DNA from: a virus | Taxonomy: Duplodnaviria > Heunggongvirae > Uroviricota > Caudoviricetes | Length of the DNA: 15,448 nucleotides | Direction: 5' to 3' (one strand) | IMG/VR virus record: IMGVR_UViG_2703718838_000010 | Shown: piece after piece, positions 1 to 15,436 of the stretch | Numbering within the stretch: the stretch's first letter is position 1 | Layout of the letters: each line of letters opens with the position of its first letter | Notes under the pieces: model-generated | The model's database searches: none | The model's input: the letters and a program-made list of their open reading frames with translations, nothing else | Told to the model about the DNA's origin: nothing | Position numbers and translations under genes: made by a program

Positions 1-137
1 CACAACTTCCGAGGACAGCATCGTCCGCTGGCCCACAGAAGTCCGGAAAGTCATGGAAGGTCGTTGTTGGGAGGAGGTACAAATTCTCTCATGCAAAAAA
101 TACGTAAAATCGATAATAGCTGGAAATAATTCAATAC

Positions 138-198
138 ATGCACTCTCGAAAGTGCATCAGCCAACCGCAGAACGTTATTGCATACAACGTTTCTGCGG
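138..198. other. Two adjacent inverted repeats downstream of tfa (atgcact-ctcgaa-agtgcat at 138..157; ccgcagaacgtt...aacgtttctgcgg at 165..198); possible terminator structures between tfa and whatever lies beyond the window start
   Basis: Read directly from sequence: a 7-bp perfect stem with 6-nt loop, and a roughly 12-bp stem with a 1-nt bulge and 9-nt loop, 15-75 nt downstream of the tfa stop. No clean U-tract follows either on the minus strand. Confidence 0.35.
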
Positions 199-212
199 CA
201 TAATCCCAATGA

Positions 213-797
213 TTACTCCCTGACAGGGTTCGTAGGCCACTCAATATCAGGTGCAGTTGACGTATCAACACGGTTCAGCAATACCCGATACTTTTTCCAT
301 GCTTCCAGCAACGAGATTTCTTCCTCCGTTGCAATTTCCAGATCTGCAGCATCCTGAAGCGGCGCAATATGCTCACTGGCTACCTGCATCAGGTTGTTTT
401 TTGTTTCTTCCGCCTCCCGGATCCGGAACAGTTTTTCTGCTTCCGTATCCTTCACCCAGGCTGTGCCGTTCCACTTCTGAAACTCCCCTTCCGGCGATAA
501 CCAGGTAACATTTTCCGGTAACGGACCGAGTTCAGAAATAAATAACGCGTCGCCGGAAGCCACGTCATAAACCGTTTTACCCCGATGATCTTCAACGAGA
601 TGCCACGATGACTCATCACTGTTGAAAACAGCCACGAAGCCTGCCGGAATATCTGGCGGTGCAATATCGGTACTGTTTGCTGGCAGACCTGTATGAGGCG
701 GAATATATGCATCACCTTCACCAATAAATTCATTAGTTCCGGCCAGCAGATTATAAATTTTTATGGTCCGTGGTTGTTCACTCATTCTGAATGCCAT
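213..797 (-). CDS. tfa: Tail fiber assembly protein (lambda Tfa-like, 194 aa)
   Basis: ORF track 213..797 (-). Translation [24 protein letters not shown]... matches my recollection of lambda Tfa almost throughout. ATG at 797..795 shares one nucleotide with the stf TAA stop (799..797), typical translational coupling. Stop TAA at 215..213. Confidence 0.9.
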
Positions 798-3700
798 TAT
801 GCAAGCCTCACAATATAGTTAAATGCGATGTTTTTGACGGTGTTTTCCGCGTTACCAGCTGCGTTAACGGTGATGGTGTGTCCATGTGAACCAATCGCAA
901 CGGAGTGCGTATGCGCACCAATACCTACAGTATGTGCGTGTGCACCTGCGCTTGCAGCAGTACCCGATACAGAGTGCGTATGAGCGCCTGCAGAAGAAGT
1001 GTTAACACTGTATTTAGAATAATCAGGTGATCCACTTCCCGGAGCACCTTTGGTGCCACCTGAAACAAATGTTATCGAATGGGTATGTGCACCGGCTGAA
1101 GCAGCCGTACCGCTAACACTATGGGTATGCGCCCCGGTGTTATTCGTGGATTTAGTGCCGTAATCAAACGACGATGTGGTTTTCGTCCCCAAATCCGTAC
1201 TGGATGCGCTGGCGCTGTGGGTGTGCGATTTAATGCCGTCCTGTTCCTGAGACAATACGGCCCGACCACTGGCAGGTTTGCCCTTAATCGTCCAGCCACG
1301 CATATCAGGGATCACACCTGACGGATAAGCGGCTGCAAGTTTCGGGTAAGCAGATTTGTCAAAAGTCTGCCCCTGCATCAGGGCATAACCAGACGGAACG
1401 GTATCTGATGGCCACGGGATTGGTGCACCGACTGGATAAAACTCTGCAGGAGGATGAGCTGAGGTGTAAAGCTGCGCCCACGGCGACCAGTTTGCGTCGG
1501 TCGTATCCCGTCGTGAACGAATAAATGCCGGAGCATGAGCACCGCTTGTACCACTCCAGCCGATGAGTAACTCACCTTCGCCAACGGCTGTCATCCCTTT
1601 CAGGTGAATGATATTTCCATACGCTGTTGGATATCCGTTGTTATACACCTCGTATAACTCAAGACCTGTTGCCCCCTGCGTATTGTCTGTCAGCGCGGTT
1701 ACCCGACCTTTTGAAGCCAGATTAACTGATGATACTGCTGTTCCACCTGACGGTAACGCCCCGATCTCTGATGCCGTTGGCTTATTTCTGGAGTTATAGT
1801 CCCTTCGCCAGCCAGGTGAATAATCTGTTCCGTGATTAATATAGGTAAACTGGGCGTTAGTTGTTCCACCACCAGTGGAGGTGGTCGGTGTGGTAATGCG
1901 GATCGTCATCGCTGACTTTATCCCCATTACTTCAATGACAGCTCCGGCGAGATGAATATTACCGCAGCCAGTATCAGTAATGATTTTATTATTGCCATAA
2001 GACCAGGAACCCTTGCACATCCAGTATGGATGGTTAAATGCTCCCTGAGAATCCAGCCACTCGATAAACTGTGCAGTCGTCCAGTCTCCTGTTGTTGTGC
2101 TTACTGACCCACCGAAGGCGCGGCAGGCACCAATATTTTTCGTAAAGGTGTCTTTGCCAGGGATATCCGCACCGTTCTGATCTTTCTGCAGACGTTTCTC
2201 AGCATTGTCATTGGCTGCTTTTACTGCCTTTGGCGTTGCCGCCAGCGTTTCAGACGTGCTGTTGGTCGCGCTGCTTAGCTGGATTATCCCTTTCTGTGCT
2301 GTCGTTGCATCCTGTGCGGTGTATTTCCCGTTAGCCAGGTCATACGCGGCCTTAACGGCTTTTGGCGTTGCCGCCAGTGACTCGGAAGTGCTGTTGGTCG
2401 CACTGCTGAGCTGTACTATCCCCTTTTTCGTCGTGCTCGCATCCTCAAGCGCCACGGCGGATGCAATATCCTCTGCCCGTTTTGCCGCTGTCTCAGCGCG
2501 CGTTGCTGCAGATTCCGCCGTACTTTTGCTCTGAGCTGCTGCCGTCGCACTGCCAGCTGCCTCTGTCGCCTTCGTGGATGCCGTCGTGGCGCTACCCTTC
2601 GCTGCTGACGCCTGTCTGGTCGCCTCATCTTTTGAAGCAGACGCCGATGAGGCCGATGACGACGCCGAACTGGCTGACGATGCGGCAGCCGTTTTTGAGG
2701 ATTCTGCGCTGGTTTCCGACGCTTTCGCGTTCGTTTCGGATGTCTTCGCTGCGGAAGCAGACCTCGCTGCTGCGCTGGCCTGTTCAGTGGCTTCGCCAGC
2801 CTTCGTTGTGGCTGTTGAAGCAGACGATGCGGCGCTTTCTGCCGATTTTCCGGCGGCGGTGGCACTGGCTGAGGCCTGCCCGGCACTTGTTGACGCTGCA
2901 CTGGCAGACGACGCAGCCGCTGTTTTTGAGCCTGCCGCAGCCGAGGCGCTCTGTCCCGCTGCCGTTTCAGAAGACCTGGCGTTCGTCTCTGACGTTTTTG
3001 CCGCCTTCGCGGAATTTCCTGCCGCTGTTGCCGAGGAAGCTGCGCTACTGGCGCTCGAGGATGCGTTCGTTTCTGATGATTTTGCCGCCTCTTTTGAAGC
3101 CGCCGCATCCCGGGCTGAGGTGGCAGCTTCTGACGCTTTCGTAGTCGCGGTGGATGCAGAAGTGGCTGCTGATTGTTGTGACGCTGCAGCATTCGTTTCT
3201 GACGTTTTCGCGGCACTGGCACTGGTAGCTGCCGCGCTTTTTGAGGACTCTGCAGCGGCAGCACTTTTTGATGCTTCAGTGGCCTTTGTTGATGCCGTTC
3301 CTGCGCTGGAAGTCGCTGACTGAGCCGACGACGCGGCCTGTCCGGCTGACGTGCTGGCTGCGCGTGCTGAGCCTGCAGCATCAGTCGCATGGGTTGCCGC
3401 CTCACGGGCTGATGTGCTGGCATCACTGGCTGACTTCTTCGCGGCTGCCGTGTTCTGTGCCACCACGGACGCGTTACGCGCCACCTCTTCCACCATCAGC
3501 TCAAAACGGCGCAGTGCCTCCGGACGGGCATCATCCTCCGTCATGGCACCGAGAAAATCATTCAGCGTACCGGGTCGGGAATCTTCATACACTGTGATGG
3601 TCCCGGCATGTGACGGCGGGAATCCTTCCACCAACAGAATAACGCTGTACTGACCGTACTCAACGTCCATACTGTAACGCCCGGCTTCATCCGGATTTTC

Positions 3701-3820
3701 AGATGCCAGCGTGTTCACCACCACCGTGGTACTGTTACGTTTTGCTTTCAGCTGGATTGTGCAGTTCTGTACCGGTTTTCCTGTGCCGTCTTTCAGTACA
3801 CCTGAAATTTTTACTGCCAT
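797..3820 (-). CDS. stf: Side tail fiber protein, intact long form (about 1007 aa), with Ala/Ser/Thr-rich quasi-repeats and a C-terminal His-x-His repeat domain
   Basis: ORF track 797..3826 (-) begins MNMAVKISG; the track start at 3826 is GTG, while the ATG at 3820..3818 gives [26 protein letters not shown], the lambda Stf N-terminus as I recall it, and is preceded by GGGGTGA. C-terminus has repeated GAHTHS / GAHAHT / GSHGHT motifs and ends [11 protein letters not shown]. Confidence 0.85.
2228..2421. repeat. Two imperfect direct repeats of about 63 bp (2228..2290 and 2359..2421, period about 131 bp) inside stf, encoding the repeated motif [11 protein letters not shown](S/T)[11 protein letters not shown]
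   Basis: Seen in sequence: ctttggcgttgccgccagcgtttcagacgtgctgttggtcgcgctgcttagctggattatccc versus cttttggcgttgccgccagtgactcggaagtgctgttggtcgcactgctgagctgtactatccc. Confidence 0.8.
2430..3430. repeat. Low-complexity, internally repetitive GC-rich segment of stf encoding the Ala/Ser/Thr-rich shaft ([12 protein letters not shown]-type quasi-repeats)
   Basis: Translated stf ORF shows degenerate repeats ([43 protein letters not shown]...). The same DNA yields long spurious ORFs in other frames (2416..3426 -, 2574..3323 +), a hallmark of repetitive GC-rich sequence. Boundaries approximate. Confidence 0.6.
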
Positions 3821-3828
3821 ATTCACCC

Positions 3829-3858
3829 CACAAAAAAGCCCGCCTGAACCGGCGGGCT
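3829..3858 (-). terminator. Rho-independent terminator-like hairpin downstream of lom (stem gcccgcc / ggcgggc, loop 6 nt, then T6 on the minus strand)
   Basis: Plus strand 3832..3858 is aaaaaagcccgcctgaaccggcgggct; on the minus strand this is agcccgccggttcaggcgggcttttttgtg. It lies 27 nt after the lom stop (TGA at 3887..3885) and directly before the stf RBS and ATG at 3820. Confidence 0.6.
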
Positions 3859-3884: not shown

Positions 3885-4484
3885 TCAGAATTTATAACCA
3901 ACACCCACGATGAACCCGTCAGTGCGCCAGTCACCACTGCCGGAGCCTTCATAAGCGACATCAATGGCCACGGATTCGGTCGGGTTAAACTGCACGCCAG
4001 CTCCCCACGCCAGAGACGTGTTGCTGTGGCGACCGTCATCACTTCCGGTCAGCACATCGTGCTTTTTCCCCTTGTTGTCAGTTACGCGGAGATAATCCCC
4101 GGAGAAAGTCGACACACGGCTGTAAGCCACACCCGCCATCGCATACGCGCTGAACCATTCATTCACGCGCACAGACGGCCCCGCCATTACGCTGAACCAG
4201 CGGTTACGAACGGAATCTTCATGCCAGCGGGTATCGCTGTAACGGGTAATCTGGCGATTCTTGTCTCCTGCATAGCTGAACGACGTCACCATCCCCAGTG
4301 TGTCCGTAAACTCATAACGGTATTTCACGTTAATCCCGTTCAGATCATCACTGCCGGGAACGTTCGTCCGGGCATGAAGATACCCCGCGCTCAGCGTGGA
4401 CTGATGTTCAGACGCCCATGCAGGCGCACCGGATACGGCCAGACAAATGGCTGCGGACAAAATGGCGGCATAAAGTTTACGCAT
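3885..4484 (-). CDS. lom: Outer membrane protein Lom (Ail/Lom/PagC-family beta-barrel; lysogenic-conversion moron)
   Basis: ORF track 3885..4484 (-), 199 aa. N-terminal signal peptide [24 protein letters not shown] and C-terminal ...[10 protein letters not shown] ending in Phe, typical of outer-membrane beta-barrels; matches lambda Lom as recalled. RBS GAGAGG 5 nt upstream of ATG (4484..4482). Confidence 0.9.
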
Positions 4485-4506: not shown

Positions 4507-4532
4507 ATAAAAAAGGCGTCATTTCTGACGCC
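4507..4532 (-). terminator. Rho-independent terminator-like hairpin between J and lom (stem ggcgtca / tgacgcc, loop tttc, then T-run on minus strand)
   Basis: Plus strand 4509..4532 is aaaaaaggcgtcatttctgacgcc; on the minus strand the hairpin is followed by ttttttattgcag. It sits 19 nt downstream of the J stop (TGA 4553..4551) and about 30 nt upstream of the lom ATG. Confidence 0.55.
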
Positions 4533-4550
4533 CGTTCTGGGTTATAAAAT

Positions 4551-7952
<3,402 letters not shown>

Positions 7953-10025: not shown

Positions 10026-10363
10026 CAGATCACCACTTCGTCAAACTGACACGAAAAATCGGTATAGGTGATATGTTCTGTCGCTGACCACGTTCGACAC
10101 ACCACTCTGATTTTTCTGTTAATACCCGGCGGGCGCCAAAAAAAAGATTTATAGCCTTCATGCCGGGCTAAAAATTTTTCAAATGAATCACGTTCATTCG
10201 CCTCAACTTTGAAATCACAGGTGAAAACGCGCAGAGAATGATTAAGTCCATTTGGACTTCGTTGCTCATAACCATCATCAAATCTTACAGTTTTTATCGA
10301 TGGTTTATTTTCTGTTTTCATTCCATCCTCTGGTAACCAGTGAAATTCTTCCGTATTAGCCAC
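10025..10363 (-). CDS. M: Minor tail protein M homolog (diverged from lambda gpM); start uncertain between GTG at 10363 (112 aa) and ATG at 10321 (98 aa)
   Basis: ORF track 10025..10363 (-). Position between tape measure and L, and conserved core [10 protein letters not shown] / KSFFWRPPG recalling lambda M (VRFGDGYSQR / KSFLWTPP). The GTG start overlaps the tape-measure stop by 8 nt; ATG at 10321 has GAGG 5 nt upstream. Confidence 0.75.
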
Positions 10364-13300
10364 TTAACATTCCCCCATCACGTCGCATATTTAACAGATT
10401 GCCCTGCACCCGCTGATCAACCATCCCCATAAGTGCTTTTATTGCCTGAGGGCCAATCTCTCCATTCTGGCCGTCATTTTGAATAGTGATTTGGTATACA
10501 GGGGCATAGGTAATATCTCCGCCTCCATTACCACTTTTACTATTAATAGCTCTGACACCAAGAGAACCATCGGAAGTTCGTGTTAATGGCATAATGGCTT
10601 CCGGTCCAGCCTCACCAAAAACACCAGCCCCTTTTGCAAAAGCAAAAAATTGCGGGGAATCATAAATACCGTTCGAATACGTGCTCAATGACGGAGACTC
10701 ATAAACACCGCCCTTTGCATTCGGAATAAATTTACTAATAGCACTCCCGATAGTTCCTAAAATCCCCCCAGAAGAACTGTTACTAATGCTGTCGATAATC
10801 CCAGTAATTGAAGCCTTTAATGCTATTCGACTAAGATCCGAAATCACGGAAGTAGCGAAAGAACGAAAATTTGCCTTGCCTGTCGTGACAAAATCACCCA
10901 GCGCATCGGTCATCCCATCAAACATCTGAGTCGTGGTTGATTTTATCTGCTCACTGATATCCTTAGTGTCATCCAGCCAGTTATTGAATCCCTGGGAGGC
11001 ACCACTAACCCAGTCTCCTGCCTGAATATCGAGCTGCTCGTTTTTCTGTCTGACAATTTCTTTTTCCCGTTCCAGAGCATCATTCAGAGCCTGCATTTTC
11101 TCTTGAAAAACATGATCTGACATTCCACGGGATTTATCTGCATAGTCACGTTCAAGTTGCAGACGCTGATTGTTATATCCATGTTCAATCCGCAGTAATT
11201 CCTGCTGGCGTTGCTGATTTTTATCGCCAACCCCATAACCAGCAATCTGAATATCATACCCCTGCTGACGATTATCAATCGAAGCCTGCAATGAATCACG
11301 CCATGCTGTTATTTCGGCGGATTCCTTGATTAGCCTGTTATTTTTTTCAATCGCAACATTTTTCTCCATCAACGTGGTTATTTCTTCCCGGTGTAAGAGA
11401 AGCGATTTCTGATCCTGGGTTAATTTCGATGATGGTCGTGACTCTAGGTCGGCAATCCGCTGACGCCACTTAACCAGTTCCTGTTCAGAGGAACTTAATT
11501 TAACGGTCAACTCAGCTTGTGAACTTAGTAACGCATTCTGTTGATTCAGATGATCAATCATTCGTTGGGCTGCATCATCAGAATAACCTTTCGCCTTTGG
11601 TTGCTTTGGATCTTTATAACGCTCATTTATTTGAGCGATAAGATTATTATATTCTTCCTTTGAATACTGATTCTTTAGCTTTTCCAGTTTTGCAAGTTCA
11701 CTAGCTCTCTGCTGCTCCCGGGTCTGATATTGTTTTGAAAAGGCATCTGCTCTCTGTCTGAGTTCAATTCCTTCCTGTTGTCGCTTGTTGTAATCGTTTA
11801 TTGATGAATTTAGTACGTCCTGAGCAATTTTTTCTGCTTGAAGTACGCCCAATTGCTGCTTTAATCGTGCCAGCCTTTTATTTTGAGCTCCGCCATCTCC
11901 AATGCCACCTAACCCGAAAACTCCGGGTCGGGTATTTTTTTCTATTTCATCAATTTGACGGAGAACATCTGAGATTTTTTGATCAAGGGAGGCCTCACGG
12001 CCAATATCCAGCATGGAATCCCATGCCCATTTTGCGGAGTCTGCGACAGCTTTCCATGCAGTCTCAAGATAACCAAGATTTTCTTTAATCTGGTTGGTGC
12101 GCTGGATCATTGAGGATGAGTATTCTTCTGTCGCAATGCGGGCGGCCTCCTGCTGGTTCCCTTCATCCTGTAGCGCCTTAATCTGGTTATAAGTCGCAAG
12201 TGTCAGAAAATGGTACTGATCATTAAGTTTTGATATGGCACTGACAGGATCCTTTGCAATTTCATTGAAGTCATTAACCAGTTGTTCGGTTGATATTCCT
12301 GTTACTTCGCTCGTTTTTACTATCGCTGTCGTCACTTGCTCCAGCGAACTGCTCGCTACCTTTCCCGAACGCACAAGCTGATTTAATACTGCCGCCGCAG
12401 CACCAGTTGTCGAATCAGCCGCATTCCCGGCACGTTGAGCTATATCGCCCAATTGCCCGCTGGTTGTCCCCAACTGATTTCCGGTAAGAATAAGAGATTT
12501 ATTAAATTCGTCCTGCTCCTGAGAGCCTTTATAGTAAGCCAGTCCTAAGACCCCAACGGCTGCTGCGGCCAGGGTAAAAGGATTAATTAATCCCAGCACA
12601 TAAGAACCTACACCTTTGATCGCCGGGCCAATCCCACCGAACATATCTTTTAGCTGGCCGCCCTGCTGCATTAACACCATAAATGGCGACTGACCAGTGG
12701 ACAACCCAACAACAATATCCGTCATTTGTGCAGGCAACATGCGCATAGCAAAAGCCGTTTGTTTTGCCGACATTCCGGTTTTGCTTAATTGTGATTGAGT
12801 AACCTCAAGCTCACTCCGCATAGCACGAAGTTTTCCAGAAAGCTCCTCATACATTTCAGGAGAAAGCATCCCCTTAGCTTTTGCTTCATTGAGCTGTTTC
12901 TGTTGTTCTACCAGACGATTAAAAGCAGTTCCGACAGGATCAAGTTGAGCAATCAGACGTTGCAAAGCAACAACCTGTTCATCATGCGCTTTTGCTGCTT
13001 CTCGCTCTGCCTGAGCCTCTCCGGTAAGCTCTCGCCGTGTTTCCTGTATTTTTCGGCTATAATTCTCAAACTGAGAACCATTTATTTTCCCGGATGCAAA
13101 CGCAGCATTAAGTTCATCATGCTGTTGTTCAAGATTTCTTAGCGCCGCAGCCAGAGGGTCGATCTTGTCCAGCATTCTTTGAAAGGCCTGAGCCTGCGCT
13201 TCCTGCTGGGCGGCAGCAAGTTTTCCGGCCTTCTCGGCTTCTCTCTGCGCTTGCGCAACCCCGCTCAATTCCTCTGTGGTTTCATTAAGTTTACGGACAA

Positions 13301-13589
13301 GAAATTCATATTCTTCTTTATCAATAAGCCCTTTATCGAAAAATTTCTTTAATTCAGAATAGCGTCGACCGACAGTATCAATTGCGGCACCAACTGGATC
13401 AATAGCTGCTTTTAATTTTGCGAGCGCGTTCTTCTCATCTTCTGTTGCCTTAGTCACTTTCCCTGCGCTATTTGCAGCAGTTTCCCCAGCCTGCGTCATT
13501 TTGACTAATGAGGAGGTCAGATTGTCAGCATTATTTTTCGCTCCAGTGCTATCAATAATTATTGCGAGACGCGAGGTTTGCTCTGCCAT
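10356..13589 (-). CDS. Tail tape measure protein (1077 aa; functional equivalent of lambda gpH but a different, more AT-rich lineage)
   Basis: ORF track 10356..13589 (-). Largest gene, between the chaperone pair and M. N-terminal about 55-aa tandem coiled-coil-like repeats (…[20 protein letters not shown]…, …[20 protein letters not shown]…, …[20 protein letters not shown]…) and a hydrophobic Gly-rich central segment ([19 protein letters not shown]...[14 protein letters not shown]). ATG 13589..13587 preceded by AGGAG. Confidence 0.85.
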
Positions 13590-13607
13590 TTATTAAAACT
13601 CCTGACA

Positions 13608-13634
13608 ACAAAAAACCCACCGCGAAGTGGGTTT
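13608..13634 (-). terminator. Rho-independent terminator-like hairpin between the chaperone T-frame and the tape measure gene (stem aaacccac / gtgggttt, 6-nt loop, T-run on minus strand)
   Basis: Plus strand 13610..13634 is aaaaaacccaccgcgaagtgggttt; on the minus strand it reads aaacccacttcgcggtgggttttttgttg and ends about 20 nt before the tape-measure ATG. Confidence 0.55.
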
Positions 13635-13754
13635 CAGGCGACATAATAGTAGATATAGCGATTACGAGGCCACGCAATGCTTTTCTCCAGGAGCATCATC
13701 GATTTAATTAAAGACACCATCACATCTCTGTAACAGAGTGTACGTAATTAACAA

Positions 13755-14071
13755 CTACACACACTGCTCCTGAAAATACTGGTCATCCAGTGCAAAGATC
13801 ACTGCTTCAAATTCATCGCGCTCAATCAATACCGGATGAGTGGCTAAATATTCATTTATCTCTGTCAGAGATAAAGGCAAAGGCACCCCAGCCATTCCAG
13901 CATAACGTCGGGCACGGTATATTACCGAATAGGCGTACAACAACTCCTTAAGCACCGGGTCTATTTCTGGTTCCGGTATCGGTGGCAACCTGAGTTTTTC
14001 TCGCTTCCATCTTGCCTTTTCCCCCCTTTCTCCCCCGAACTCCGATAACCACCGCTGGGCAGCTATGGCTT
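13755..14071 (-). CDS. T-like -1 frame extension of the tail assembly chaperone (expressed only as a G-T fusion, about 105 aa added; fusion about 255 aa)
   Basis: The ORF track lists 13755..13988 (-) from a TTG start, but the same frame is open upstream to 14099 and overlaps the end of the G-like gene, exactly as in the lambda G/GT arrangement. Stop TAG at 13757..13755. Confidence 0.65.
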
Positions 14072-14524
14072 TTTTATCGTATCCTGCTTCTGCTGCTCTT
14101 TACCCTGGGCGATGCTGGCTGCTTCTGCAAGGATCTGCCAGTACAACTCTGGATTCTGCTTAAGCAGCGCGATCCCTCGTTCTGCCGTATATTCCAGTGC
14201 AACCTCAACACCATTAACCAGTTCACCAACCCCTTTCCAGTCTTTCAGCAGATAACGAGCGGCATTATCAATGAGTAAATCATCAACAGAATCCACCTCG
14301 GAAACCTTTGAAATATCAAACTCCTTCGTTCCGACGTGCAAACTGGCATCCATTTTCTCAATGTGGCGACGGATTAATGCATTACGGGAGCGATACTGAT
14401 CGTTATCGCTGCTTGCCACCAACAGTTTTAACCCGTCTACAGGTTTTAAGTCCTTCATTGGCGTAAACCAGCGTTCTCCACCAATGATAATTTTCTGATT
14501 AAGAATAAACATCCATAACCTCAT
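14063..14524 (-). CDS. Tail assembly chaperone (gpG analog, about 150 aa); start either ATG 14524 or ATG 14512
   Basis: ORF track 14063..14524 (-). Sits between the major tail protein and the tape measure gene, ends ...KEQQKQDTIKKP-stop (TAG 14065..14063), and carries an A_AAA_AAG slippery heptamer 2 codons before its stop. No similarity to lambda G itself; the call is by synteny plus the frameshift architecture. Confidence 0.7.
   Translation of the reverse strand: MRLWMFILNQKIIIGGERWFTPMKDLKPVDGLKLLVASSDNDQYRSRNALIRRHIEKMDASLHVGTKEFDISKVSEVDSVDDLLIDNAARYLLKDWKGVGELVNGVEVALEYTAERGIALLKQNPELYWQILAEAASIAQGKEQQKQDTIKKP
14069..14075 (-). promoter_or_regulatory. Programmed -1 ribosomal frameshift slippery heptamer A_AAA_AAG (minus strand) joining the G-like frame to the downstream T-like frame
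   Basis: Minus strand reads ...GAT ACG ATA AAA AAG CCA TAG in the G frame. A -1 slip on A AAA AAG enters a frame that I translated by hand as open from 14099 to the stop at 13755 (…KKAIAAQRWLSEFGGERGEKARWKREKLRLPPIPEPEIDP…). The same heptamer is the classical E. coli dnaX slip site. Confidence 0.7.
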
Positions 14525-14572
14525 TCAATGCGTCCCCCTGTAGGGCAGTACCACAGGAGGAATAACGGAAAA

Positions 14573-15436
14573 TCAACTAATCGCCTCAGCACTGGCTTTT
14601 GCGATCACGGCAGCCGGGGAATTTTTTTTTCTGGTTATCGTAGGTGCTTCATCTGCTGCGGTAATGCTCAATTGAACCTGGATAATGTCGCTATTACCCC
14701 CATCAGGCCATTCACCTGACACCTGAACCTTCGGGAAACTGAAAGTGTATGCCCCCTCTCCATTCGAAAGCGTGAAGCTGAACGGAACTGTTTCTCCAGT
14801 CAGTGTTTTACTCCAGATTTCCCACGCGGCTTTAGACCATGAAAGCGTCACCGTACCGGACGGTGTAAAAGTAGTCGGAATATTTGCTCCTGCATAAGGC
14901 GAGCCAGTCCCGATACAACGCTGTGTCTGGAGTTTGTTATCGAACTGAATATCAAAACTGTCGATACAAAAACCGTTACCTCCGGCAACACCATTCAGGC
15001 TTACTGCTGAAACCTCCTTAAACGAATAACGTAGCTTTCCTGCACTATCCACAGGTTCGCCTTTGATAAAATTCGTATCATCGGCCTTTGATTCCCAGTC
15101 CAGTCCGGCAAAGGTTACGGTCGCTGTAATATCGCCGTCGTTAGGGATCTGCATTTTCCATGAGCCAACCTGCGCTCCTCTGACGACAGAGGCAATTCCG
15201 ACATCGGACGCATAGGTCGCCAGAGAAAATGTTATTCGCTCATTCCCCATTGTCAGAGAATCGCCTGACCATTCCGCGCCGAAACAGGATGCAAGAAAAT
15301 CATCATGTTGACCCCAGCGAAATTTGGTACCAACATCACCGCCGACATCCACAGTGCCAGGCGTCGCCCCCTGAGCCATCCGGGAGCCACCAATCTCATT
15401 ATTTTCGCCTTTATTCTGGGTGGGTTTTACTCCCAT
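14573..15436 (-). CDS. Putative major tail (tube) protein, about 270-287 aa; start uncertain (ATG 15436, internal ATG at 15379, or beyond the window edge)
   Basis: ORF track 14573..15436 (-). Lies immediately upstream of the chaperone pair, the usual position of the major tail protein in siphovirus tail modules. The frame stays open to the window end (15448). Not similar to lambda gpV by eye, so the call is by synteny. Stop TGA 14575..14573. Confidence 0.6.
   Translation of the reverse strand: MGVKPTQNKGENNEIGGSRMAQGATPGTVDVGGDVGTKFRWGQHDDFLASCFGAEWSGDSLTMGNERITFSLATYASDVGIASVVRGAQVGSWKMQIPNDGDITATVTFAGLDWESKADDTNFIKGEPVDSAGKLRYSFKEVSAVSLNGVAGGNGFCIDSFDIQFDNKLQTQRCIGTGSPYAGANIPTTFTPSGTVTLSWSKAAWEIWSKTLTGETVPFSFTLSNGEGAYTFSFPKVQVSGEWPDGGNSDIIQVQLSITAADEAPTITRKKNSPAAVIAKASAEAIS

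Follow-up and report, generated by a model that had tools for sequence, protein, structure and literature searches.

An intact, modular side tail fibre gene of a lambda-like prophage with a T4-type receptor-binding tip

Side tail fibre genes of the lambda type are well described and are found in most E. coli genomes. In laboratory lambda, stf is split, as an earlier note on this DNA had correctly stated, the two parts being orf-401 and orf-314 (PMC12617516). Stf of Ur-lambda binds OmpC and makes adsorption 10-30 fold faster; its N-terminal domain has a tail-docking role, and a trimeric coiled-coil model was published for the part homologous to the shaft described below (PMC12617516). Stf of Gifsy-1 binds the LPS core (PMC12312913). 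According to PMC11705849, which cites the crystal structure of T4 gp37, seven aligned His-x-His (HxH) motifs coordinate seven iron ions. The 'T4/lambda RBP family' was reported to diverge in the head region, which determines the specificity of T4 (PMC9659904). Published work on T4 gp37, on Stf of Ur-lambda, and on the 'T4/lambda RBP family' already covers the architecture of such fibres, their homology to gp37, what the HxH motifs do, the chaperone Tfa, and how fibre genes evolve as mosaics (PMC12617516, PMC9659904). The gene analyzed here is an ordinary intact gene of this kind, belonging to a lambda-like prophage, modular, and provided with a T4-type receptor-binding tip.

The analyzed window, a DNA stretch of 15,448 nt, carried on its minus strand the genes J (4551-7949), lom (3885-4484), stf (797-3820), and tfa (213-797) in this order, all intact; its tail genes from the tube gene through tfa were all open and of normal length. 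The earlier note gave the coordinates of stf correctly and omitted the strand. According to the ORF list and translation, stf was a single ORF of 1007 codons without internal stops, with ATG at 3820 and TAA at 797-799. A GTG codon at 3826, two codons upstream of this ATG, falls within a Shine-Dalgarno-like GGGGTGA; therefore, ATG 3820 was taken as the start. The product translated from it begins with MAVKISGV, the same as lambda Stf. Independent E. coli genomes contained stf of the same 3024-nt length, which excludes a sequencing error as the source of the open frame: the gene is one continuous ORF, as had been claimed. E. coli genes of equal length, annotated as 'phage tail protein', had 99.2% DNA identity with stf. 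Pfam confirmed that the two genes are a lambda-type stf, here intact, and behind it tfa: phage_tail_N (PF08400) matched Stf over its full length (aa 1-134, to nt 3419; E 1.4e-71), and Caudo_TAP matched Tfa (E 3.8e-44). No family was returned by NCBIfam for Stf or Tfa.

The start of tfa overlaps the stop of stf by one base (TAATG). Tfa was 94% identical to lambda Tfa (183/194 residues), and the exact tfa sequence was present on at least 1000 public contigs. Downstream of tfa the window ends after 212 nt; sitD occupies this place in the closest genome. Between lom and stf, a consensus scan revealed a terminator-like hairpin, separated from the stf start by 16 nt, which may act as a transcription terminator. 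The long ORFs that run antisense to the shaft are probably not genes but an expected by-product of stop-poor codons rich in GCN, AGC, and ACN. The features of the region are listed in Table 1.

Table 1. Features of the stf-tfa region, with positions in the window
Feature	Position	Strand	Basis
tfa, tail fibre assembly chaperone, 194 aa	213..797	-	PF02413, E 3.8e-44
stf, complete side tail fibre CDS, 1007 aa	797..3820	-	ORF list, translation, DNA matches in E. coli
Needle of gp37-type tip, aa 866-1007	800..1225	-	seven HxH motifs
Hypervariable head loop, 29 aa, aa 915-943, between HxH 3 and 4	992..1078	-	tip alignment, sliding identity map
Collar domain of gp37-type tip, aa 798-845	1286..1429	-	PF07484, E 7e-12; aligned to 2XGF
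Middle globular region, aa 547-793	1442..2182	-	part 1 homologous to Mu S' fibre
Phage_fiber_2 unit 2, aa 503-546	2183..2314	-	PF03406; holds DNA repeat copy 2207-2313
Phage_fiber_2 unit 1, aa 459-502	2315..2446	-	PF03406; holds DNA repeat copy 2339-2445
Proximal shaft (aa 104-461), 51 heptads without a break in register x-x-A-x-x-S-A	2438..3511	-	autocorrelation, constant phase
N-terminal tail-attachment (collar) domain, aa 1-94	3539..3820	-	PF08400, E 1.4e-71; 9e7m
Terminator-like hairpin, lom/stf gap	3837..3858	-	8 pairs, 7 G-C, then T6; consensus scan

Residues 1-94 of Stf aligned at all 94 positions, with few differences, to the N-terminal chain of lambda Stf resolved by cryo-EM (9e7m, E 1.3e-51). 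The degenerate repeat region of about 1 kb, described earlier as encoding an Ala/Ser/Thr-rich shaft, was found to be a heptad coiled coil (aa 104-461). Ala, Ser, and Thr made up 70-80% of residues across about aa 150-450. Self-blastp of Stf with composition correction gave no internal hits; therefore, periodicity was measured by autocorrelation (500 shuffles). The 7-residue period was strict, with z = 7.5-10.4 at each multiple of 7 to lag 56. One core register was Ala in 47 of the 51 heptads, and the phase was constant throughout the shaft. These constant-register heptads agree with the coiled-coil shaft published for Stf of Ur-lambda. At the DNA level the shaft was weakly repetitive, its best internal matches covering 28 nt (89% identity) and 39 nt (82%).

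The length of the coiled coil is strongly conserved, not variable, and length change there is rare. Among the best 120 matches listed of a large protein search, the anchor distance over the coiled coil was 340 aa in 111/118 protein clusters, while 28 aa (4 heptads) were missing in 5 clusters. Since these matches were nearly all close and often partial relatives, biased for length variation, 60 rows spread across 4455 E. coli records were added as a second sample; every full-span shaft match in it (89-100% identity) had exactly the query length. Ur-lambda Stf is shorter in the shaft by 105 aa, which equals exactly 15 heptads. The near-invariant length of 51 heptads across thousands of prophages, in spite of repetitive coding DNA, might reflect strong selection on fibre length, which would serve as a geometric ruler set against the central fibre. 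The conservation of shaft length is a small, checkable point on fibre geometry.

Two Phage_fiber_2 stretches were identified in Stf (PF03406, E 5.8e-37), and this region matched the Mu S structures 5yvq and 8ju3. The units, 44 aa each, shared 30/44 residues. Two direct DNA repeats of about 63 bp reported earlier (2228..2290 and 2359..2421) are real but longer: they comprise 107 nt each (2207-2313 and 2339-2445), with 77% identity and a spacing of 132 nt, and were recovered by self-blastn of stf as a pair of 87 nt at 80.5% (E 5e-18). Two units were present in 112 of the 120 protein clusters among the best matches listed. Comparison of copy numbers, suggested in the earlier note, did reveal variation among relatives: the fibre of PhiR29_1 contains a single hybrid unit instead of two, with the crossover in a shared identical 17-nt run, CTGGCGGCAACGCCAAA. 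The repeats had also been proposed as substrates of recombination; unit loss (PhiR29_1) and domain shuffling were indeed seen in relatives, whereas shaft length was nearly invariant.

The first part of the middle globular region was approximately 70% identical to the S' fibre of phage Mu: aa 539-695 aligned with residues 178-334 of the S/S' construct (G(-) orientation, PDB 8ju3) at 237.8 bits with 108/155 identical residues. Mu S also matches the Phage_fiber_2 unit preceding this Mu-like module, whereas the receptor-binding C-terminal domain of Mu is replaced in our Stf by a further module and the gp37-type tip. No solved or curated relative of the second part (aa ~696-793) was found: a search of PDB sequences with aa 690-800 at E <= 10 returned none, and the sole return of Pfam for aa 541-800 at E <= 10 was a sub-threshold hit to Gp34_trimer. 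An AF2 model of aa 541-800 from the single sequence had a mean pLDDT of 29.6; the homologues of this region obtained were all >90% identical, so that no useful alignment could be built. K-12 StfR and phage 2H10 have another module in place of the middle region.

The tip (aa 794-1007) was ~71% identical to the crystallised tip of T4 gp37 (2XGF; E 1.3e-87, 152/213 residues), with collar, needle, and head in common over 214 aa and an identical C-terminal stretch of ~30 aa. Seven HxH motifs (aa 866, 898, 912, 947, 961, 970, and 979) account for all 14 His of the last 214 aa; none of 20,000 shuffles reached this number, and all seven columns were in register with T4 gp37. Thus, the repeated C-terminal His-x-His motifs noticed earlier are genuine, and the likeness to the T4 tip proved to be stronger than proposed, since the C-terminal region and the crystallised tip of gp37 are directly homologous, with 7/7 motifs aligned. 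The degree of similarity suggests that the tip adopts the interdigitated trimeric needle fold of gp37; by analogy, it would be trimeric and bind metal (iron) at the HxH motifs. Outside the tip, gp37 is unrelated to our Stf, and the head loops are completely different. The chaperone of the window is a lambda-type Tfa, in contrast to gp38 serving gp37 (30% identical), and the gp37-type tip is located here on a siphovirus side fibre, whereas that of T4 belongs to a myovirus long tail fibre.

According to the tip alignment with six relatives and the sliding identity map, divergence in the tip was confined mainly to the specificity (head) region, the head loop being the main divergent block. Its DNA identity was below 75% with three relatives, while the flanks were mostly >=90% and in many cases >=97% identical. 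A 21-aa direct repeat flanks the loop, with 18/21 identical residues yet 40/63 identical nucleotides. By its pattern of divergence, the head loop is presumed to be a receptor-contact cassette. Its DNA was detected in 624 of 5426 complete E. coli genomes (~11%), and the allele was absent from all 50,697 sequenced phage records; hence, no cultured phage offers a phenotype that could be borrowed.

Ur-lambda Stf (P03764, 774 aa) shares with the window the locus order J, lom, stf, tfa, as well as the N-terminal domain, the heptad coiled coil, the Phage_fiber_2 unit, and the gp37-type HxH tip. Our Stf is longer by 233 aa, with 15 additional heptads and one additional fibre unit; where lambda has its hinge and distal segment, it carries another, larger middle region. 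It has seven HxH motifs versus eight in Ur-lambda, the head loops are unrelated, and the overall DNA identity of the genes is 56%; therefore, the OmpC specificity of lambda is not transferable to our Stf. StfR of the K-12 Rac prophage (1120 aa) has the same N-terminus, an identical 340-aa anchor distance, a coiled coil with 96% DNA identity, a gp37-type tip with seven HxH motifs, and tfaR downstream. It differs in having one fibre unit, an unrelated middle module (aa ~480-800), and another head loop.

Of 5426 complete E. coli genomes, 638 contained at least 80% of the stf gene; the number of stf-like places per genome had a median of 2 and a maximum of 16. The exact Stf protein was absent from a collection of 15 billion proteins. 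Its nearest RefSeq protein, WP_024195673.1 (strain MLI104K1), and WP_071686011.1 (strain E275a) are both 1007 aa long, differ by 7 and 10 residues, respectively, and have the same head allele type; three differences from the RefSeq alleles lie in the head loop (I916M, T923S, K924S). Both RefSeq proteins are annotated generically. The E275a prophage has the same neighbourhood, next to sitABCD. The middle and head modules were exchanged between relatives, T4-like phages included. The Stf protein is a mosaic.

The ORF, domain homologies, motif register, module boundaries, and recombinant relatives observed at the locus point with high confidence to a lambda-like side tail fibre acting together with Tfa, a trimeric fibre making the reversible first contact and carrying its specificity in the head loop. 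By homology, three Stf chains would form one fibre, with residues 1-94 docking at the tail tube/tip junction and the Ala/Ser-core coiled coil of 51 heptads, about 50 nm, as the proximal shaft. Past the shaft would follow two Phage_fiber_2 units and two globular modules, and the last 214 aa would form the collar, needle, and head of the T4 gp37 type. As in homologues, the seven HxH motifs of each chain would stack and hold seven metal (iron) ions on the trimer axis, while Tfa, encoded by the overlapping downstream gene, would aid folding of the tip. The role in adsorption is likewise derived from homologues: the fibre would touch the cell surface first and reversibly, quickening adsorption, and only then would J, the central fibre, bind a receptor of its own. 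Specificity would reside in the 29-aa head loop; as this is a swappable cassette, the allele probably binds a surface epitope other than that of lambda or T4. By analogy with the receptor classes of homologues, its receptor is most likely either a loop variant of an OmpC-type porin or the core of the LPS. A widespread, uncharacterised receptor specificity of the head allele, unlike the OmpC and LPS-core ones of lambda, T4, and Gifsy-1, is conceivable, if somewhat doubtful. No relevant receptor data were found in the literature on the PhiR/mEp phage set.

Alternatively, stf could be an intact but idle relic of a defective prophage, serving infecting phages as a reservoir of modules through recombination. 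The remainder of the prophage lies beyond the window; thus, it may be defective and its fibre never assembled. Such a relic would be consistent with the multiple stf-like places in E. coli genomes, with the full-length stfR of the same architecture retained by the defective Rac prophage, with the clear exchange of fibre modules, also with T4-like phages, and with the head allele being present in bacterial genomes but absent from the records of isolated phages. However, none of the tail genes in the window is interrupted or of abnormal length, head genes follow in the closest prophage (E275a), and near-identical stf alleles occur in PhiR29_1 and mEp460, which are inducible, plaque-forming isolates. 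We consider an idle relic unlikely; moreover, the roles of working fibre and reservoir are not mutually exclusive.

Two further readings treat the locus as a source of variation. In a contingency locus, unequal recombination between the Ala/Ser/Thr repeats and between the fibre units would often alter fibre length as an adaptive variable, and the loss of exactly one 44-aa unit in PhiR29_1 with a crossover inside the repeat, the 15-heptad difference from Ur-lambda, and the five clusters lacking four heptads among the best matches listed could be read in this way. The constant shaft length in the spread E. coli sample, the prevailing anchor distance and two-unit arrangement among the best matches listed, and shaft DNA repeats too short and too diverged for frequent homologous exchange make it very improbable. 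A switch of host range by Gin/Cin/Pin-type inversion, known from Mu, P1, and e14, is even harder to credit. The Mu S' variable part is matched from its first residues, and an invertase gene directly follows tfa in Rac (pinR adjoining tfaR), in a Qin-position prophage, in mEp460, and in 2H10. Nevertheless, the invertible segment of Mu has no counterpart at our locus: the window contained no recombinase ORF up to its end 212 nt past tfa (a place taken by sitD in the closest genome). A search allowing up to 1 mismatch detected no crossover core of the AAACCNNGGTTT type, and the ORF list had no second, inverted fibre-tip or tfa ORF. The switch at this locus was therefore rejected, unless an invertase acts in trans on an unrecognised site.

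A side tail fibre gene of known type carries little weight for discovery. Junctions like the edges of the head cassette, together with conserved flanks, have been used for engineering lambda-based delivery particles (PMC11338833). The sharply bounded head cassette, with an allele common in E. coli genomes, gives the gene modest practical value.

On its minus strand, the window encodes the tail module of a lambda-like prophage. The stf frame was unbroken over 1007 codons, from an ATG at 3820 to the TAA at 797–799, in both the ORF list and the translation, which bears out the intact ORF and the coordinates reported in the earlier note, where the minus strand had been left unstated. A GTG at 3826, also listed, falls inside a Shine–Dalgarno-like GGGGTGA; the ATG was therefore taken as the start. 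The stop codon overlaps the ATG of tfa by one base (TAATG).

Strong terminator-like hairpins of eight pairs followed by a T run were found on the minus strand at 3837–3858 (lom/stf) and 4514–4533 (J/lom), the number of sites in a whole-window scan being no higher than in shuffles; bracketed by these two, lom fits a separately bounded "moron" within the late operon. Long ORFs (227–336 aa) overlapped the shaft coding region at 2416–3426 (minus), 2461–3144 (plus), and 2574–3323 (plus), and lambda's annotated orf206b occupies the equivalent antisense place. The shaft codons are stop-poor, repetitive, and GC-rich (58–63%), with a strong AT skew, and these ORFs are probably a by-product of such codons, not genes.

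Features of the stf locus and of the Stf protein
Feature	Position	Strand	Description
tfa	213–797	minus	194-aa tail fibre assembly protein, directly after stf
stf	797–3820	minus	side tail fibre, 1007 aa
lom	3885–4484	minus	upstream of stf
J	4551–7949	minus	upstream of stf and lom
phage_tail_N (Pfam)	aa 1–134	minus	E 1.4e-71
Shaft	aa 104–461		51 heptads, fixed register x-x-A-x-x-S-A
Fibre units	aa 459–546	minus	two Phage_fiber_2 units; also match Mu fibre structures 5yvq, 8ju3
Middle part 1	aa 539–695		108/155 identical to residues 178–334 of Mu S/S' construct 8ju3
Tip	aa 794–1007	minus	matches crystallised T4 gp37 receptor-binding tip 2XGF, E 1.3e-87
Collar domain (Pfam)	aa 798–845		within tip

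Residues 1–94 matched the lambda Stf chain of cryo-EM entry 9e7m with few differences (E 1.3e-51). The roughly 1-kb degenerate Ala/Ser/Thr-rich repeat noted earlier is real, as a heptad repeat at the protein level: residue autocorrelation over aa 118–455 peaked at all multiples of 7 up to lag 56 (z = 7.5–10.4 against 500 shuffles) and was flat or negative elsewhere. Three positions of the register were occupied by Ala in 47, by Ser in 37, and again by Ala in 35 of the 51 heptads, and no phase shift in register was seen across aa 104–461. Self-similarity of the shaft DNA was weak, the best pairs (28 nt at 89%, 39 nt at 82%) being spaced at multiples of 21 nt. In 60 rows taken at even steps through 4455 E. 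coli records matching a 1111-nt shaft query, every full-span match (89–100% identity) was one ungapped piece of query length. The distance between the two anchor motifs used to gauge the shaft was 340 aa in 111 of the 118 protein clusters carrying both; deviating values were 312 (four heptads fewer) in five clusters and 306, 337, and 343 in one each, and Ur-lambda, at 235, was an outlier with exactly 15 heptads fewer. The length of the coiled coil is conserved, not variable, and length change through the shaft repeats is rare.

The two direct repeats, previously put at about 63 bp, proved longer: 107 nt at 77% identity (2207–2313 and 2339–2445; spacing 132 nt), or 80.5% over 87 nt by self-blastn (E 5e-18). 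They are the coding DNA of two Pfam Phage_fiber_2 units of 44 aa each, with 30/44 identical residues. The Stf of PhiR29_1 carries one unit only, whose 5' part resembles unit 1 and whose 3' part resembles unit 2 of the window; the switch lies within CTGGCGGCAACGCCAAA, the sole 17-nt run common to the window's two units. Such a hybrid is the product expected from unequal homologous recombination. A single unit is likewise present in lambda, StfR, and 2H10. The region of aa ~480–800 was replaced wholesale in StfR and 2H10, with junctions at the fibre unit and the collar start. The proposed recombinational length change or domain shuffling is thus supported at the level of the fibre unit and of entire modules, with length change in the shaft being rare. 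Residues 696–793 had no relative among PDB sequences and one sub-threshold match only in Pfam, and a single-sequence AF2 model covering them was unusable (pLDDT 29.6). Their C-terminal motif (...RRD...W..W..LYTS...PPE) is similar to the one closing the module before it and to that in the counterpart modules of StfR, 2H10, and Mu S', from which we infer another globular fibre module.

The tip was identical to T4 gp37 at 152/213 residues. All 14 of its histidines belong to seven HxH motifs (aa 866, 898, 912, 947, 961, 970, and 979), a number reached in 0/20,000 shuffles, and in a multiple alignment each motif column is one of the seven of T4 gp37. The resemblance to the T4 fibre tip is therefore direct homology, and the HxH-type fold, whose absence had been named as counter-evidence, rests on 71% identity to a solved structure, with no prediction involved. 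Seven iron ions are held by those motifs in the T4 crystal structure, according to the summary in PMC11705849.

Stf was compared with Ur-lambda, K-12 Rac (StfR), mEp460, PhiR29_1, 2H10, SPF_0923, and two E. coli prophages. Tip differences were mostly confined to the head loop between the third and fourth HxH motifs (aa 915–943, nt 992–1078), where DNA identity to SPF_0923, mEp460, and PhiR29_1 fell below 75% against mostly at least 90%, often at least 97%, in the flanks. Divergence in the T4/lambda receptor-binding protein family is reported in this loop region, the T4 specificity determinant (PMC9659904). The gp37 of the T4-like Mosigvirus vB_EcoM_G2285 bears the PhiR29_1-type loop (SVTGASA...NGS.H.VV.A..VNTSA) on the common HxH scaffold, which indicates that the cassette moves between phage families; this pair, a myovirus and a lambdoid siphovirus, is a concrete case of cross-family cassette exchange. 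On either side of the loop lies one copy of a 21-aa direct repeat (929–991 and 1076–1138, minus strand; aa 944–964 and 895–915), identical at 18/21 residues and 40/63 nucleotides; its synonymous divergence would hinder loop deletion via intragenic recombination.

Of 5426 complete E. coli genomes, 638 carried at least 80% of stf, with 105 records at least 99% identical; head-loop DNA occurred in 624 of the 5426 and in none of 50,697 phage records, the best phage tip (90.7% identical) differing mainly in the loop. The exact 1007-aa Stf was not found in a 15-billion-protein collection; at least 1000 contigs carried the exact Tfa. In RefSeq, the nearest protein was WP_024195673.1, with seven residue differences, three within the loop. 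Many partial Stf proteins in NCBI (P0013, P0015, P0029, P0037, P0041, and other clusters) are named "short-chain fatty acid transporter", evidently an annotation error spreading via the Ala/Ser/Thr-rich fragment, and the label "partial" applies to the majority of the top 120 clusters, so draft assemblies commonly break within stf.

The whole window was 98.2% identical to a prophage of E. coli E275a (L012) whose end adjoins the iron/manganese transporter genes sitABCD; the sitD end coincides exactly with the window start (window 1–212; L012 1643–2500). A SitD CDS also follows tfa in Salmonella phage record SPF_0923, and in relatives located at the Rac or Qin position tfa is followed by a pin invertase instead. 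Lambda-like character is limited to the tail-tip set (M, L, K, I, J, lom, stf, tfa). Within window 10356–15436, the tape measure has 1077 aa with TMP_2, TMP_4, and Tape_meas_lam_C domains, the tube protein belongs to the Phage_tube_2 family, and ydaY and a 77-aa ORF occupy the chaperone region; the adjoining head gene in E275a (L012 17044–20405) is P22-type; the prophage is therefore a mosaic.

All these structural and evolutionary features have been described previously, and the finding is correct and ordinary. Mosaic tail fibre genes were reportedly the subject of classic studies by Haggard-Ljungquist (1992), Sandmeier (1994), and Hendrix and Duda (1992), and Tetart et al. (1998) are said to have described "His boxes" as recombination sites in T-even fibres. 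Publications cover the Ur-lambda Stf architecture (PMC12617516), divergence confined to the specificity region with a conserved chaperone in the T4/lambda family (PMC9659904), and Stf chimeras engineered at conserved junctions (PMC11338833).

That the locus is an idle relic or a fibre-module reservoir seems unlikely, although the window comprises tail genes only. A repeat-driven contingency locus is highly improbable given the conserved shaft length, and an invertible switch still more so, no invertase, crossover core, or alternative tip having been found at the locus. By homology with Ur-lambda, a working side fibre with a Tfa-dependent gp37-type tip is very probable. Three Stf chains would form one fibre, with the N-terminal domain as its anchor at the tube/tip junction; four such fibres would mediate fast reversible adsorption ahead of J binding its receptor. 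A gp37-type tip would be expected to depend on the chaperone encoded downstream, Tfa, which shares 94% identity with lambda Tfa and 30% with T4 gp38; the chaperone role of gp38/Tfa has been described (PMC9659904). The Stf of Ur-lambda attaches to OmpC and makes adsorption 10–30 fold faster (PMC12617516), and that of Gifsy-1 attaches to the LPS core (PMC12312913). For the head allele of this prophage, the receptor we favour is either a variant OmpC-type porin or the LPS core.
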